From the sequence record PQ863256.1: a stretch of 64,000 bases of DNA; one strand, written 5' to 3'. The notes below the pieces were generated by a model that searched no databases, was not told where the DNA came from, and saw nothing but the letters and a program-made list of their open reading frames with translations. Below, piece after piece: positions 23,236 through 35,382 of the stretch. Position 1 is the stretch's first letter. Each line of letters begins with the position of its first letter. The translations under genes were made by a program, and so were the position numbers. The stretch comes from Escherichia phage Ptacy1479.

Positions 23236-23472
23236 TCACTCTGCCAATGCAGGTATCTCTAATCTCTTAATTGTGAATGCTTTGTCTGGAAACTTTCGAA
23301 CTAGCTCCGCTGCTTTGCTAATCGCTAAGTTCTCTGTTTCAAAGATACAGAATTGACCATTCAGAGCGGTAATAGTGGAGCCACCACTGAAGATGGCCCA
23401 AGATTTATAATAACCACGAACACTCATAACCCACCTTAGTGCGTATGCATCCAGTTGAGTCCAATCTGACAA
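23236..23472 (-). CDS. hypothetical protein
   Basis: 78 aa ORF, co-oriented. Confidence 0.3.
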   Translation of the reverse strand: MSDWTQLDAYALRWVMSVRGYYKSWAIFSGGSTITALNGQFCIFETENLAISKAAELVRKFPDKAFTIKRLEIPALAE

Positions 23473-25280
23473 TCAGAGGCCAGAGGACATTCCATGTTCA
23501 AGTACTCACCCGCTTTCTTAACACAAAGCTCAGTGTGTTCTTTGAGTTTCTGTACATCATTACGATTCACTGAGAATTGGCCCTCATCATGCATATCAAT
23601 TACCTTAGCACAACGAACCCCATCCCTCTCAATCCACTTGTTTAGGAACATCATAGCATATTTCATAACAACAGCACCAGCACATTGCAGTAGAGTGTTA
23701 AGTGCTTTATGAACCATAACCTTACCAGTGGCATCTCGTCTCATTGTAATCTTACGACCATCAACACCAATCAAGTATCCTTGAGCAGCTTTCTCTGTCA
23801 TACGATCAATGAGGATTGCAATACATGGGTTCTCTGCCAAGAAACGTGCTCGCATCACTGAACCTTCTTCAGCCCCACCACCTACAATTGAACCAAGCTT
23901 AGCGTCGCCAGCACCGTAGTTGAATGCATAGATAAATGTTTTAGCGTTGTCACGAGTAGGAAGACCAGCAAGTTTCTGGTTATGGGAGTGGATATCACCT
24001 TCAAGGAGAATATCACGATACATAATAGCAGAAGCTAAACCACGTTCTGCCAGAGCTTTCTTAGCCGGATTGTTCTCTTCAATTGCCTCAGCAAGCATAT
24101 CTCTACACTCTTTAATGAGGTAGTGAGCGAGCATACGAAGTTCAAGTCCAGAACCATCATACCCTAAGAATACTTCTTTACCAGCGGGTATGTAATATTT
24201 GTAAGCACCTACAGGTTTGTCTTTCTTCCTCGGCTTACCTTTCTCATAAATTACGTTAGTACCTTTTCGTATATAACAACCATCAGGAACAACGTTAGTA
24301 ATAACGAAAGGACGAGAATGATCACTGTCTGAGTTATAGTCAGACTCAAACAAACTGCGACACTCGTGACCAAACAAACCACGGGAGGGAATATTAACCA
24401 CGATACGATGTTTGAATCGAAAAGTTGGCGTAGCGCAGCTGTTAGCTTCTGCCGAAAGTTTACCATCTTCGCGTTCCTTTGCTATGAGTCCACTGATAAG
24501 ACCTAGCCTGTGAGCCGCTACAACGCGTCTCTTAAGCAAACTTCCGACACTCCCTAGATCACCCCCTAGCCCCTCTTCAAGAGTCTCCTCGAGGTTTGTA
24601 GGAGCTGTAGGCCACTTATTTGATGTGGCTAGTGCTTTCTTAATCTCATCAAACGTTACAGGATTACGGCGATTAGGGTTCAATCCCAAACCAAATACGT
24701 AAGCCTTCATATAGTTCTTAGTTTTAAACCTGAAATGCTTTTCTAAGAACTTCTTAATATCAGCGTCAACCATCTCGGCTGTCTGCTTTTGCTTAGCATT
24801 GCCTCTCATCCAAGCAGTATACCATGCTTGGTATGTTCCATACTTTCGCATATCTTTCTTAATTTCGAAAGTATTCCAAGGTTTCTTAGATACGTTAAAC
24901 TCTGGAGGAAGAAAGCCCTCATCCATAAGAGCCTCTTTAACTCGTGCATCTTTCGATGGGTCAAAGTCTACGTATTCGACACAGGTGAATGCTCCACCAA
25001 TATCTTCTCTCTTCAGCCCAACCCTATCACAATAGGCTTGAGGCCACTTCTGTAAAGCTCCAGACTTCTTAAACGGCTTCATGTAAGTAGAGCCATCTAA
25101 TCTCATCTTAGGTAAGAGAGGAATCAACTCTCTGTCAATATTAACAATAATCTCTTTAAGGAGGTGAACATACCACCGAGCATTTCTTCGGTTGAAACTC
25201 ACTCCGTGCTTTGCTTGCTTAGAGATTATATCAGCGACAGTCATCTCTGTCAAAAATGGAAGAGCGTCCGGGTTGCTCAC
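23436..25280 (-). CDS. DNA polymerase family A, polymerase domain only (split polymerase, part II)
   Basis: Motif A GYDGSGLELRMLAHY, motif B RDNAKTFIYAFNYGAG, motif C IDMHDEG; no exonuclease motifs in this ORF. Confidence 0.85.
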   Translation of the reverse strand: MSNPDALPFLTEMTVADIISKQAKHGVSFNRRNARWYVHLLKEIIVNIDRELIPLLPKMRLDGSTYMKPFKKSGALQKWPQAYCDRVGLKREDIGGAFTCVEYVDFDPSKDARVKEALMDEGFLPPEFNVSKKPWNTFEIKKDMRKYGTYQAWYTAWMRGNAKQKQTAEMVDADIKKFLEKHFRFKTKNYMKAYVFGLGLNPNRRNPVTFDEIKKALATSNKWPTAPTNLEETLEEGLGGDLGSVGSLLKRRVVAAHRLGLISGLIAKEREDGKLSAEANSCATPTFRFKHRIVVNIPSRGLFGHECRSLFESDYNSDSDHSRPFVITNVVPDGCYIRKGTNVIYEKGKPRKKDKPVGAYKYYIPAGKEVFLGYDGSGLELRMLAHYLIKECRDMLAEAIEENNPAKKALAERGLASAIMYRDILLEGDIHSHNQKLAGLPTRDNAKTFIYAFNYGAGDAKLGSIVGGGAEEGSVMRARFLAENPCIAILIDRMTEKAAQGYLIGVDGRKITMRRDATGKVMVHKALNTLLQCAGAVVMKYAMMFLNKWIERDGVRCAKVIDMHDEGQFSVNRNDVQKLKEHTELCVKKAGEYLNMECPLASDCQIGLNWMHTH

Positions 25281-25296
25281 TTTATACTCCTTTAAA

Positions 25297-25719
25297 TTAT
25301 TGGTAAAGTAAATCTGTAAATGCTTGGTTATCTTCTACTACATTCAGCATGGTTGCTTCATCACTATAAGCCCTAACTGTCCCGTTGACAACTGTCCAAG
25401 GAGGGGGCGGAGGAGGTGTATGTGCAGCTCTGGCTTCACGAGGTTGTTCTCGTACTAGATGATCCACAACCCTCTGACCAGCAAGTTCCTCTCTTTCTCT
25501 AATAGATCTTTGGATGTAAGCCAGCTTCATACCCCAAGCTTCTTCAAACTCTTGAGGGTGCTTATCACTGATAACCACATACTGTCGCTCTGGGCGTCCT
25601 GCCCTAATATCTGACAATAATTCATGGAACAAGTCAAGCTCATGTTCAGTGAGACTTTCTTCGATATCATCCCACTTGAGAACTAGGAAACGGTTTTGAT
25701 ATCTAGTTGGTAATGGCAT
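25297..25719 (-). CDS. hypothetical protein (Pro-rich segment PPPPPPW)
   Basis: 140 aa ORF directly upstream of polymerase gene. Confidence 0.35.
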   Translation of the reverse strand: MPLPTRYQNRFLVLKWDDIEESLTEHELDLFHELLSDIRAGRPERQYVVISDKHPQEFEEAWGMKLAYIQRSIREREELAGQRVVDHLVREQPREARAAHTPPPPPPWTVVNGTVRAYSDEATMLNVVEDNQAFTDLLYQ

Positions 25720-25722
25720 AAC

Positions 25723-33467: not shown

Positions 33468-33479
33468 TCTTTTTCCTTA

Positions 33480-34826
33480 TTAGCGAATGTTTTGTGAATT
33501 TATTAAGTGGTCCAGTTCTCCACCAACCTGAGGCTCTAATACTTCAGGATTGTTGGCAACAAACCGATCAGCGAGACTGCGGCTGACAGTCTCAGCAAGT
33601 TCGTCATGAGAAGGAGTATCAAGATCGGAGAGACTACCTACCACATCTTGAGCCACGCCTTCATCAGTCCAGATAACACGAGAAGGGGCGTTGATATCAC
33701 CAACAGCGAAACCTTGACCAGAGAACTGGTGACGGCTAACAGTAAAACCATTTGATCGACCACGAGAAGGACTAGATATCCATCTCTCCATAGAATCCCT
33801 TGTAATACCAAGAGCTTCTTCAAAAGATGTTCTACGAGTAGGGCTTTCTCTTCGTGACTCTTGTGCTCGACGCATTGCAGGGGCTACAAACACCCCTTCA
33901 ATTGCATTGTGTCGGTTAGGTTCTTCCCGACCAAGCAGATCACCACCCGTGTTGGTTGTTAAGTTTGTCAACCCTTCAGACCAATATGCTCTTATCTGAC
34001 TAGAGCCATGAACACTTGACATTAACTGAATCTCTTCATAAGGGATTCCAAAGAATCGACTCATGTCACGATTAACACAATACTGAGCACTTGTTGTGTC
34101 CTCAATAAGAGCAACCTGACCTCGTTCGTTGACCAGATGACTAACTGGTTGAGGTGTGGGAAGGTATCGAGTTTGGGCCATGTATTGATGTGCAGCTGCT
34201 GGAGAGGAAAATCTCAACACTTGCGAGTTAGGCCACTTCTTGTGAACATACCTGATTTCACGACTAGAAACAACCACTGGACAAGGGGCGGTCATAGCCA
34301 AATATCCATGAGAAGTCATGAATAAGTTGTCAAGAGTCATCGCACCACGACACATCATAGGAAAATTATCCAATACCTCTTCAATAGAAGTAGGATAATT
34401 AAACATGAATTGGATACGAACCCCATTCCACTGAAACTCAATAATATCAGTGAATGTTAATTGAGAACTCCCAGCATAGGATTCGTTTGTAGCTTCAGCA
34501 AGAAGGGATGCATATTCAACATCTTGTGACTCTAGCCATTCCTTCACATTACTTTCAATCTCTCTTCCAAGAGCTTGCCAACGATCAGTTGGGACGAAAG
34601 TATTTTGAGTTCTTGGTGTTTGTCCTCTGACAATAAAGATATCAATGTCATGTGGAGCTGTGTTATTAAGCACAGCATCACGAACAGCCCCACCAGTAAT
34701 GATGGGACAGATACCGTCTGGAACTAAATTGTTGTTAATCAACTGTTCAATGAAGTGACGACCAACAGTGATATCAGGTTGTTGAGCAACCTTATCTTCA
34801 ATTTGGTTAATCGGGATAACAATCAT
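33480..34826 (-). CDS. Pol-beta superfamily nucleotidyltransferase with CCA-adding/poly(A)-polymerase-type head and long C-terminal extension
   Basis: GGAVRD...DIDIF motif (PIITGGAVRDAVLNNTAPHDIDIFIV); start placed at Met 34826 immediately after exonuclease stop. Confidence 0.5.
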   Translation of the reverse strand: MIVIPINQIEDKVAQQPDITVGRHFIEQLINNNLVPDGICPIITGGAVRDAVLNNTAPHDIDIFIVRGQTPRTQNTFVPTDRWQALGREIESNVKEWLESQDVEYASLLAEATNESYAGSSQLTFTDIIEFQWNGVRIQFMFNYPTSIEEVLDNFPMMCRGAMTLDNLFMTSHGYLAMTAPCPVVVSSREIRYVHKKWPNSQVLRFSSPAAAHQYMAQTRYLPTPQPVSHLVNERGQVALIEDTTSAQYCVNRDMSRFFGIPYEEIQLMSSVHGSSQIRAYWSEGLTNLTTNTGGDLLGREEPNRHNAIEGVFVAPAMRRAQESRRESPTRRTSFEEALGITRDSMERWISSPSRGRSNGFTVSRHQFSGQGFAVGDINAPSRVIWTDEGVAQDVVGSLSDLDTPSHDELAETVSRSLADRFVANNPEVLEPQVGGELDHLINSQNIR

Positions 34827-34827
34827 T

Positions 34828-35382
34828 TTACATTTTCCAATATAATGAAGGTGGGTCGTAAGGGTCAAATCCCGTGAGTTCACACAAGAAAAGATAAACC
34901 TTAACAGTTAAGTTAACGTCCTGTTCACAATAAGTAAACATATCTTCAGTGAAAGCATCCCATGCTTCCTCTTGCTCACCGTAATCACCTTTAAGTTCCT
35001 CTAAGAACTCACCCCATTGCTTCAAACCATGACCTCTTGGGCCACGTCTAGGGTCGCCTTTCGGGTACTCAGGACTGTCACCAATACGGTCAGGTTTAAG
35101 ATATCGACTAAGACATAAAGTGTCAAAGACGTTAAAATGATATTTAATCAAAGAAGGATACATCTTCTTCAGAGCAGGTAAGTCGAAGTCAATGATATTA
35201 TGACCAACGAGCACATCAGCTTCTGTAAGTTTACGAATCCCATCTTCAATTTGGTGAGGCCGATAGCCCCACCTTTCACCAGATTCAACATCGAAGATAT
35301 AAATACACCATACTCTAGTTATGTCATCGTACAGTGCATTACTCTCGATATCAAATGCAAACACTTTCTTTTTCTTTACCAC
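34828..35382 (-). CDS. DNA polymerase family A 3'-5' exonuclease domain protein (split polymerase, part I)
   Basis: Exo I FAFDIESN, Exo [14 protein letters not shown], Exo III YCEQDV; 184 aa, no polymerase motifs. Confidence 0.8.

Follow-up and report, generated by a model that had tools for sequence, protein, structure and literature searches.

An exonuclease gene and a polymerase gene 9.5 kb apart encode the two halves of a T7 gp5-type DNA polymerase in Escherichia phage Ptacy1479

In E. coli Pol III (alpha and epsilon) and in archaeal PolD (DP2 and DP1), polymerase and 3′-5′ exonuclease are separate cooperating polypeptides. Their polymerases have folds of families C and D, unrelated to the one described here, and Pol III epsilon is bound via a dedicated C-terminal tether that has no counterpart at this locus. 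Phage T7 carries exonuclease and polymerase in one 704-aa chain, the gene 5 product (gp5), with a full 76-aa thioredoxin-binding domain through which host thioredoxin is used. A split form is already known from RefSeq annotation and from published papers. In phiEco32, gp74 is named “DNA polymerase exonuclease subunit” and gp53 “DNA polymerase, lacks 5′-3′ and 3′-5′ exonuclease domains,” and papers of 2012, 2021, and 2023 cover the split in Kuravirus, LUZ24-like, and related phages. It has been described with a remark on the parallel between LUZ24-like phages and phiEco32 (PMC3517423) and reported to be shared by all Kuravirus with phages 7-11, Privateer, Vp_R1, and BUCT695 (PMC9965538). With an annotation dating from 2008 and several papers that discuss it, the split is thus ordinary for phiEco32-like phages; the sequence-only reading from which we started had treated it as new. 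In S-SBP1-like cyanophages, a T7-like PolA with a roughly half-length thioredoxin-binding loop is split at the exonuclease/polymerase junction into two genes, and association of the products was inferred from modeling (Czernecki et al. 2023, NAR, PMC10201439). That paper, which also draws the analogy to replicases with a separate proofreading subunit, mentions phiEco32 and LUZ24 zero times. Our literature search found no biochemical work on phiEco32 gp53/gp74 or their homologues.

We analyzed a window of 64,000 nucleotides from Ptacy1479 (PQ863256.1), a Kuravirus, i.e., a phiEco32-like E. coli podophage, whose polymerase is 99% identical to phiEco32 gp53 and whose exonuclease is a homologue of gp74 (about 98% identical). 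phiEco32 (Kuravirus/Gordonclarkvirinae) has essentially the same genes, gene order, and intervening gene set and differs only in spacing (7992 nt there, 9548 nt here), which is wider in Ptacy1479 because of extra small genes. The split is confirmed: two distinct minus-strand ORFs encode the halves of a family A polymerase, as had been read from the sequence (Table 1). The exonuclease ORF scored 35.3 bits with PF01612 (cut-off 23.6), and its sole PDB sequence match in phmmer was T7 gp5 residues 3-178 (E 6e-11). That the 184-aa protein might be some other, unrelated DEDD nuclease was a possibility named beforehand. It is ruled out by a PDB fold search with the AF2 model (pLDDT 94.7), which matched specifically the gp5-type exonuclease domain: the best 27 matches were all T7 gp5 (~1e-10) and the next stood at 5e-6. 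The polymerase ORF scored 82.5 bits with PF00476 (cut-off 34.3), aligned with gp5 205-704 in hhalign (probability 100, E 8.8e-61), and gave an AF2 model (pLDDT 92.4) whose best PDB fold matches were again T7 gp5; in sequence as in fold, both halves thus match T7 best. Motif B does not differ from that of T7, the Tyr526 equivalent included. All the Exo I/II/III and A/B/C motifs picked out in the sequence-only reading proved intact; the exonuclease residues listed in Table 1 are invariant in 52 stand-alone homologues and the polymerase catalytic motifs across 81 polymerases, which implies selection on both activities.

Table 1. Features of the split polymerase locus and its surroundings in the Ptacy1479 window
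Feature	Position	Strand	Basis
5′-3′ exonuclease (FEN-like), separately encoded, third Pol I-type activity	16859..17677	-	PF02739 26.4 bits, below cut-off
Polymerase subunit, 614 aa, no exonuclease domain	23436..25280	-	ORF, PF00476, hhalign, fold match
Polymerase motif C MHDE (H564, D565, E566)	23583..23594	-	
Polymerase motif B RDNAKTFIYAFNYG (R443, K447, Y451)	23913..23954	-	Y451 = T7 Y526 equivalent
Polymerase motif A DGSGLELR (D375, E380)	24135..24158	-	D375 and E380 invariant
Clade-specific helical thumb insertion ins1 (polymerase residues 136-227)	24600..24875	-	gap opposite gp5 residue 365
Shortened counterpart of T7 thioredoxin-binding loop, thumb tip (polymerase residues 58-104)	24969..25109	-	hhalign
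Independent same-strand genes between the halves, 9.5 kb	25281..34827	-	
Phage thioredoxin, 90 aa, CAPC active site	30634..30906	-	PF00085 1.3e-12
Stand-alone 3′-5′ proofreading exonuclease subunit, 184 aa	34828..35382	-	ORF, PF01612, phmmer, fold match
Exo III motif YCEQD (Y151, D155)	34918..34932	-	
Exo II motif NIIDFD (N62, D67)	35182..35199	-	
Exo I motif DIES (D11, E13)	35341..35352	-	aligns with T7 D5/E7
T7 gp4-like primase-helicase	35376..37166	-	Pfam DnaB_C and Toprim

Together the exonuclease, equivalent to gp5 residues 1-196, and the polymerase (205-704) tile gp5 with no part missing and none surplus, and the break falls between proofreading domain and thumb, in the interdomain linker. 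A tblastn search of the window with T7 gp5 found just two loci (gp5 1-196 at 34843-35364 and 293-704 at 23439-25067) and hence no fused exo-pol gene, the finding that would have spoken against a split. A polymerase query likewise hit one locus per complete Kuravirus genome listed, except in myPSH1131 (2 places). We give almost no credence to the idea that an intron, split intein, trans-splicing, or frameshifting joins the ORFs, or that the split is an assembly artifact. Group I introns are known in polymerase genes of relatives; however, 9.5 kb of intact, unrelated same-strand genes separates the halves, as the sequence-only reading had argued against an intron or intein, an Rfam search of the window found no intron, and no fewer than 54 genomes sequenced independently show the same arrangement. 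Moreover, the exonuclease ends in a stop codon without surplus residues past gp5 196 and the polymerase begins at 205, which leaves no room for intein halves.

The genes between the halves encode PhoH, a stand-alone ligase domain Ia, ThyX, thioredoxin, a Dps/ferritin-like protein, dCTP deaminase, a nucleotidyltransferase, and many small ORFs. Pfam bore out the earlier naming of dCTP deaminase (3.6e-34), thioredoxin, ThyX (1e-43), and PhoH (4.3e-56); for the nucleotidyltransferase it gave only a weak match (PolyA_pol head, 5e-4, below cut-off), alongside the RefSeq name of the phiEco32 homologue. The start of this last gene is most likely the ATG at 34826, directly after the exonuclease stop codon, rather than 34883, and thus does not overlap the exonuclease gene. 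Among Kuravirus genomes, the end-to-end span from polymerase to exonuclease ranges from 10.9 to 12.5 kb. The 5′-3′ exonuclease of Table 1 is the counterpart of phiEco32 gp33 by gene order, position, and size and by the RefSeq note on gp33, rather than by alignment. On its other side, the exonuclease gene adjoins a gp4-like primase-helicase that, like the T7 partner, has an acidic C-terminal tail ending in an aromatic residue. The exonuclease start (GGAG-N8-GTG) overlaps the helicase stop codon (GTGGTAA), suggesting translational coupling of the two, and the order primase/helicase then exonuclease is the same in four phage groups. The polymerase has its own strong ribosome-binding site (AAGGAG-N7-GTG).

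We found that the exo-less polymerases form one clade, apart from the cyanophage adjacent-gene split, a result new to the present analysis. In a crude NJ tree, this clade was monophyletic in 83 of 100 bootstraps, and its sister clade contains fused forms. Of the polymerase homologues, the 113 nearest are exo-less without exception, and each of the 54 exonuclease homologues is a stand-alone protein. Cyanophage DSL-LC07, an adjacent split that served as stand-in for the S-SBP1-like cyanophages, branched outside the group made up of the Kuravirus/LUZ24 clade and its fused sister clade in 100 of 100 bootstraps; judged by this stand-in, the S-SBP1-like split belongs to a separate lineage. There, moreover, the genes are adjacent and overlapping, from a recent +1 frameshift, whereas here they lie 9.5 kb apart. 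LUZ24-like Pseudomonas phages (Bruynoghevirus), with “DNA polymerase part I/part II,” belong to the same exo-less clade and share the order primase/helicase, exonuclease, polymerase, as well as a half-length thioredoxin-binding loop. They differ from Ptacy1479 in having the halves only ~2 kb apart and no phage thioredoxin detected by tblastn, and identities are 40% for the polymerase and 33% for the exonuclease. The Ptacy1479 polymerase carries three insertions that T7 gp5 lacks (residues 136-227, 311-372, and 388-427). The first, ins1, is also new here: it measures 48-92 aa in all exo-less members of the clade and 2-5 aa in fused relatives. It is helical in the AF2 model (residues 137-218) and matched nothing in a Pfam search. 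LUZ24-like polymerases have a shorter ins1 (~62 aa) and lack the 40-aa insertion after motif A.

By analogy with T7, the phage thioredoxin had been proposed in the sequence-only reading as a processivity factor, a hypothesis that a 2021 paper put forward for phage Privateer (PMC7881722). It would then bind the polymerase thumb and give a three-protein holoenzyme. In favor of this, the T7-like polymerase bears an insertion where the T7 thumb has its thioredoxin-binding domain; Kuravirus and the other C3-morphotype phages count thioredoxin among their core middle genes, and proteomics detected it alongside the polymerase. Against this, the loop counterpart is about half the T7 length (~47 aa vs. 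~76 aa). Its residues 58-95 portion is a constant 35-40 aa across the whole family, LUZ24-like, Vibrio, and fused relatives included, and tblastn found no phage thioredoxin in Pseudomonas, Vibrio, or Aeromonas phages; none of the polymerase features that we measured changes according to whether a phage has the thioredoxin gene. In the AF2 model, the loop forms an ordered mini-domain (pLDDT ~90) rather than a floppy one, and the phage protein is distant from E. coli Trx1 (residues 24-105, E 2.7e-7) and lacks the N-terminal ~22 residues of TrxA. In other work, only about 29% of T7-like PolAs had a loop of at least 50 aa, and AF2 did not dock host thioredoxins on split cyanophage PolAs with a half-length loop (PMC10201439). 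We therefore regard the case for a processivity factor as weak and such a holoenzyme as quite unlikely. A role in redox/nucleotide metabolism is more likely, and it is the simpler reading given that the gene lies in a nucleotide-metabolism cluster. One option is reduction of host ribonucleotide reductase; no phage enzyme of this kind is annotated in phiEco32 between 25.5 and 77.5 kb.

Assembly of the exonuclease and polymerase in trans is likely; it is made plausible by analogy with a different split lineage whose AlphaFold exonuclease/polymerase complex superposes on fused PolA (PMC10201439). Alternatively, the exonuclease might be a free-standing nuclease, not a stable subunit, with the polymerase working alone as an exo-minus enzyme; its role might then be transient proofreading in trans, recombination, or end processing, or it might be recruited via the primase-helicase. 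It is the gene for the primase-helicase, not that for the polymerase, to which the exonuclease gene appears coupled and beside which it always lies, so stoichiometry with the polymerase is not guaranteed, and the distance between the two genes ranges from 2 kb to >12 kb between lineages. Nevertheless, the domain boundaries match gp5 exactly, and linker-equivalent residues are still conserved (the exonuclease GFDPxNPP tail and polymerase N-terminal W/F/E positions). Both genes were present in each of five phage genomes examined directly. In six metagenomic pairs of a polymerase and an exonuclease, the longest contigs are equally long, suggesting that the two genes lie on the same contigs. The modeled complex noted above reproduces the fused architecture, and the same paper states that PolAs depend structurally on the exonuclease domain to be stable (PMC10201439). 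We consequently judge a free-standing nuclease unlikely. Probably, an old fission of a gp5-type gene in the linker produced two proteins that re-associate as a gp5-like proofreading polymerase. The gene for a T7 gp5-type family A replicative polymerase would have split long ago between exonuclease and thumb. The exonuclease half would have remained directly downstream of the gp4-like primase-helicase, apparently translationally coupled to it, whereas the polymerase half, with its own ribosome-binding site, now lies on that strand 9.5 kb farther downstream. Nucleotide-metabolism and small accessory genes would have accumulated between them. The whole phage clade has inherited this arrangement, in which the two polypeptides would re-join noncovalently and serve a T7-like replisome as a proofreading polymerase of the gp5 kind.

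Ptacy1479 encodes two complementary, catalytically intact halves of a T7 gp5-type DNA polymerase (gp5 being the T7 gene 5 product) on separate genes, an arrangement inherited by its whole clade. The sequence-only reading had placed the exonuclease and polymerase domains on two distinct ORFs, and both stand as separate minus-strand genes at the positions tabulated below. Between them, the two products cover gp5 exactly: the split falls at the interdomain junction, in the linker that joins the exonuclease domain to the thumb.

The exonuclease was assigned using the DEDDy motifs Exo I (DxE), Exo II (Nx2-3[FY]D), and Exo III (Yx3D), the Pfam family PF01612, and the question of whether the nearest fold is the PolA exonuclease domain. 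It scored 35.3 bits with DNA_pol_A_exo1 (PF01612; cut-off 23.6), and its motif residues (D11/E13, N62/D67, and Y151/D155, in that order) are invariant in 52 stand-alone homologues. Its only sequence match in the Protein Data Bank is to residues 3-178 of T7 gene 5 polymerase (E 6e-11), and a tblastn search of the window mapped gp5 residues 1-196 onto this gene. Identification as a DnaQ-, RNase T-, or NrnC-type DEDD nuclease was rejected: the 27 best PDB fold matches to the AlphaFold model (pLDDT 94.7) are all T7 gp5, at ∼1e-10, about five orders of magnitude better than the next match (5e-6). The protein is, therefore, a PolA-type DEDDy 3′-5′ exonuclease domain and not another DEDD nuclease.

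For the polymerase, family A membership was judged by the Pfam DNA_pol_A gathering score, motifs A (DxSxxE), B (RxxxKxxxFxxxYG), and C (HDE), and the catalytic carboxylates. The protein scored 82.5 bits (cut-off 34.3) and carries D375/E380 in motif A, R443/K447/Y451 in motif B, and H564-D565-E566 in motif C, all of them invariant across 81 homologues. Motif B matches that of T7 exactly (RDNAKTFIY), with Tyr kept at the T7 Y526 position. A profile of the 81 homologues aligned end to end with gp5 residues 205-704 (hhalign; probability 100, E 8.8e-61), and the best Foldseek matches to the AlphaFold model (pLDDT 92.4) were all T7 gp5 (E 4.6e-26). No 3′-5′ exonuclease domain was found in this polypeptide, which has no PF01612 match and begins at gp5 position 205. 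It is a family A DNA polymerase of the T7-like subgroup without an exonuclease domain on the same chain. A tblastn search with gp5 found no second family A polymerase in the window, matching only the exonuclease and polymerase genes. Among the listed complete relatives, the polymerase query matched one place per genome, except in myPSH1131 (two places).

The exonuclease gene lies 9.5 kb upstream of the polymerase gene (9548 nt, more than 25 ORFs between them). That the gap is neither an intron nor an intein, as the first reading had argued, is borne out by the lack of extra residues at the junction and by each gene having its own translation start. Rfam found no group I or group II intron RNA in the window, a single tRNA being the only match, and neither the exonuclease C terminus nor the polymerase N terminus carries surplus residues relative to gp5 that could belong to intein blocks or split-intein halves. 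The exonuclease ORF has its stop codon at the gp5-equivalent end and the first residue of the polymerase is at most a few positions away from gp5 residue 205, leaving no room for split-intein halves. These ends, the Rfam result, and the presence of the region in 54 genomes speak against a split intein, an intron, frameshifting, or an assembly artefact, and all four readings were rejected. The exonuclease gene begins at a GTG overlapping the stop codon of the primase-helicase gene (GTGGTAA), with GGAG 8 nt ahead of it, and the polymerase start has AAGGAG 7 nt before its GTG. The gp4-like primase-helicase itself has an acidic C-terminal tail whose last residue is aromatic (...FEVDEDNPF...NQADGASPW); it resembles the tail of T7 gp4, which is acidic, terminates in Phe, and contacts the polymerase.

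The genes between the halves are largely those first named: PhoH, ThyX, thioredoxin, and dCTP deaminase were all recovered, but the nucleotidyltransferase match is weak; that gene probably starts at ATG 34826, directly after the exonuclease stop codon. Also present are a Dps/ferritin-like protein, an NAD-ligase domain Ia that stands alone, and numerous small ORFs, among them tandem paralogues: a pair of 94 aa and 84 aa and a set of four of ∼65-69 aa. The ligase ORF, too, is a catalytic domain with a gene to itself. In the type phage phiEco32, gp62 is the only gene between PhoH and ThyX that RefSeq calls "DNA ligase," and it is probably the counterpart of this ORF. A FEN-like 5′-3′ exonuclease is encoded separately, as in T7 gene 6, so that each of the three Pol I-type activities has its own gene. 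The tRNA may be the counterpart of the phiEco32 tRNA-Arg annotated in the early-gene region.

Features of the split polymerase region and other elements located in the window
Feature	Coordinates	Strand	Evidence
5′-3′ exonuclease, FEN-like	16859..17677	-	Pfam 26.4 bits, below threshold 34.3
DNA polymerase, 614 aa	23436..25280	-	
Small tandem paralogues, 94 aa and 84 aa	25723..26007, 26009..26263	-	51% identity over 41 aa
NAD-dependent DNA ligase domain Ia alone (N-terminal, NAD+-binding), 118 aa	28654..29010	-	PF22745, 2.5e-35
Four ORFs of ∼65-69 aa	30428..30637, 32114..32323, 32323..32532, 32532..32729	-	Weak pairwise similarity; E 7e-5, 3e-4, from a tiny local database
Thioredoxin	30634..30906	-	
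Dps/ferritin-like protein	31156..31767	-	PF00210, 4.7e-7; next to thioredoxin gene
3′-5′ exonuclease, 184 aa	34828..35382	-	
Primase-helicase	35376..37166	-	
Primase-helicase C-terminal tail	35376..35440	-	
tRNA, single gene	51509..51580	-	Rfam 59 bits

The Ptacy1479 polymerase gene itself has no intron. In some close relatives (L008 and L009), the polymerase gene is interrupted near motif B, with a layout of a 454-aa ORF, a 365-nt gap without an ORF, and a 139-aa ORF; the gap region, at L008:4354-4617 in a 77-kb Kuravirus-like metagenome contig from ENA, strongly matched a group I intron in Rfam (102 bits, E 4e-26). An interruption of this sort may also explain the truncated polymerase ORFs of ∼450 aa (homologue entries P0014-P0017 and, from Aeromonas phage BUCT695, P0099). 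The gene has another insertion site as well: in Escherichia phage 1-6af (L006:2223-2796), and likewise in 1-6bf and FH3, it is broken just after motif C, at about residue 573, by an insert of ∼600 nt. This insert includes an ORF for an HNH_3 homing endonuclease (7e-12) and weakly matches a group I intron (26 bits, E 0.0023).

The split extends well beyond Ptacy1479. In metagenome-scale searches, the nearest 113 polymerase homologues all lacked the exonuclease domain (440-618 aa), and the first fused homologue appeared at 44% identity; the exonuclease homologues (136-212 aa) were stand-alone in 54 of 54 cases. Six polymerase/exonuclease pairs had a longest contig of equal size. The order of primase/helicase followed by exonuclease is conserved in Kuravirus, Vibrio phage SJSY21 (110 kb), the LUZ24-like phage Pae-1, and cyanophage DSL-LC07. 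The distance from exonuclease to polymerase is more than 12 kb in SJSY21 and ∼2 kb in Pae-1, and the two genes are adjacent in DSL-LC07. Among close relatives of Ptacy1479, the gap between the halves differs (10.9-12.5 kb end to end), which fits a region that gathers accessory genes.

We built a tree of the polymerase domain by neighbor joining with Kimura distances and 100 bootstraps, a crude method. The exonuclease-less enzymes of Kuravirus, Vibrio-type, and LUZ24-type phages formed one clade (83/100), whose sister clade has fused enzymes (84/100); DSL-LC07, our stand-in for the S-SBP1-like cyanophage group, fell outside both (100/100). This topology suggests that the Kuravirus/LUZ24 lineage underwent a single old fission, independently of the cyanophages. 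A 2023 report presented the cyanophage split as the first of its kind (PMC10201439). The S-SBP1-like PolA described there resembles that of Ptacy1479 in having two genes and a break at the interdomain junction. However, its genes are adjacent or overlapping, arose from a +1 frameshift, and belong to a cyanophage lineage, and Ptacy1479 differs on all of these points.

The two proteins would be expected to reassociate non-covalently and to proofread at a T7-like replisome. The main rival reading is that the exonuclease acts without binding stably to the polymerase. Reassembly is favored because residues of the former linker remain conserved in the two proteins, because the two genes co-occur in every genome examined, and because a published model exists for another split lineage (PMC10201439).

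Three insertions set the polymerase apart from gp5: one in the thumb (residues 136-227) is helical, one ahead of motif A (311-372) is rich in beta structure, and one behind motif A (388-427) consists of two helices. The thumb insertion is 48-92 aa long in every member of the exonuclease-less clade and 2-5 aa in the fused relatives; searched alone, it matched no Pfam family. Since it follows the position of the thioredoxin-binding loop, its place in the alignment would put it close to the tip of the thumb and away from the base that faces the exonuclease. A putative role in holding DNA or in processivity seems likelier than one as an exonuclease dock.

The sequence-only reading had also cast the phage thioredoxin as a possible processivity factor, by analogy with T7, in which a thioredoxin-binding domain of ∼76 aa lies between thumb helices H and H1. 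A thioredoxin-fold gene is indeed present, with a PF00085 match (1.3e-12) and a CAPC active site, but the rest of the analogy fared poorly. The protein aligns only to residues 24-105 of E. coli thioredoxin TrxA (E 2.7e-7), the N-terminal part being missing, and is a truncated, generic thioredoxin. The polymerase segment at the thioredoxin-binding site is ∼47 aa, against ∼76 aa in T7 (hhalign), and is modeled by AlphaFold as ordered; throughout the family, LUZ24-like, Vibrio-type, and fused relatives included, the loop is constant in length, at 35-40 aa when counted over residues 58-95. By tblastn, thioredoxin homologues occur in 126 phage records, with none in Pseudomonas, Vibrio, or Aeromonas phages, and neither loop length nor insertion length tracks the presence of the gene, so that the co-occurrence test fails. 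A loop of at least 50 aa occurs in only ∼29% of T7-like polymerases, and the split cyanophage enzymes show the same halving of the loop, with AlphaFold not docking host thioredoxins onto them (PMC10201439). The specific T7 analogy thus has little support.

A replication-linked role for the thioredoxin is possible, because its gene is one of the core middle genes and its expression is detectable. The gene lies among nucleotide-metabolism genes; no ribonucleotide reductase is annotated in the inspected stretch of phiEco32, from 25.5 to 77.5 kb. The Dps/ferritin-like gene next door is a hint that the pair forms a module for redox or iron handling, not an accessory of the polymerase. The counterpart of the Dps-like gene in phage SU10, CDS67 (DPS domain), was conserved in all five C3 phages compared and was seen by proteomics (PMC4281155). 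We consider it improbable that the Kuravirus/LUZ24 enzyme is a distinct three-protein family A replicase of polymerase, exonuclease, and thioredoxin and not just a broken gp5. In such an enzyme, the helical thumb module would have arisen along with the loss of the covalent exonuclease link, and this module and the half-length loop would recruit either the free exonuclease or the truncated thioredoxin.

The polymerase is 99% identical to that of phiEco32 and of dozens of Kuravirus (Gordonclarkvirinae) genomes, and an 11.9-kb region spanning both genes is common to 54 deposited phage genomes (92-95% identity across 80% or more of the region). The window, therefore, comes from an unexceptional phage in a group of E. 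coli podophages that has been well sampled. The split is already known from annotation of the type phage and from several papers. RefSeq names phiEco32 gp74 "DNA polymerase exonuclease subunit," describes gp53 as "DNA polymerase; lacks 5′-3′ and 3′-5′ exonuclease domains," and lists gp33 as a separate 5′-3′ exonuclease. The 2023 NAR reclassification of family A described exonuclease/polymerase gene splitting in T7-like cyanophages and modeled the complex (PMC10201439). The thioredoxin idea has been published too: it was put forward in 2021 for phage Privateer and applied more widely to all C3-morphotype phages (PMC7881722).

The split itself thus has little discovery value. Literature searches for biochemistry of split phage PolAs or of the Kuravirus thioredoxin returned genome papers only; as easily grown coliphages, Kuravirus members would offer a convenient system for studying reassembly and proofreading by a naturally split family A polymerase. 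Our analysis makes two modest additions: the Kuravirus split is apparently older than, and separate from, that of the cyanophages, and it coincides with a clade-specific thumb insertion.
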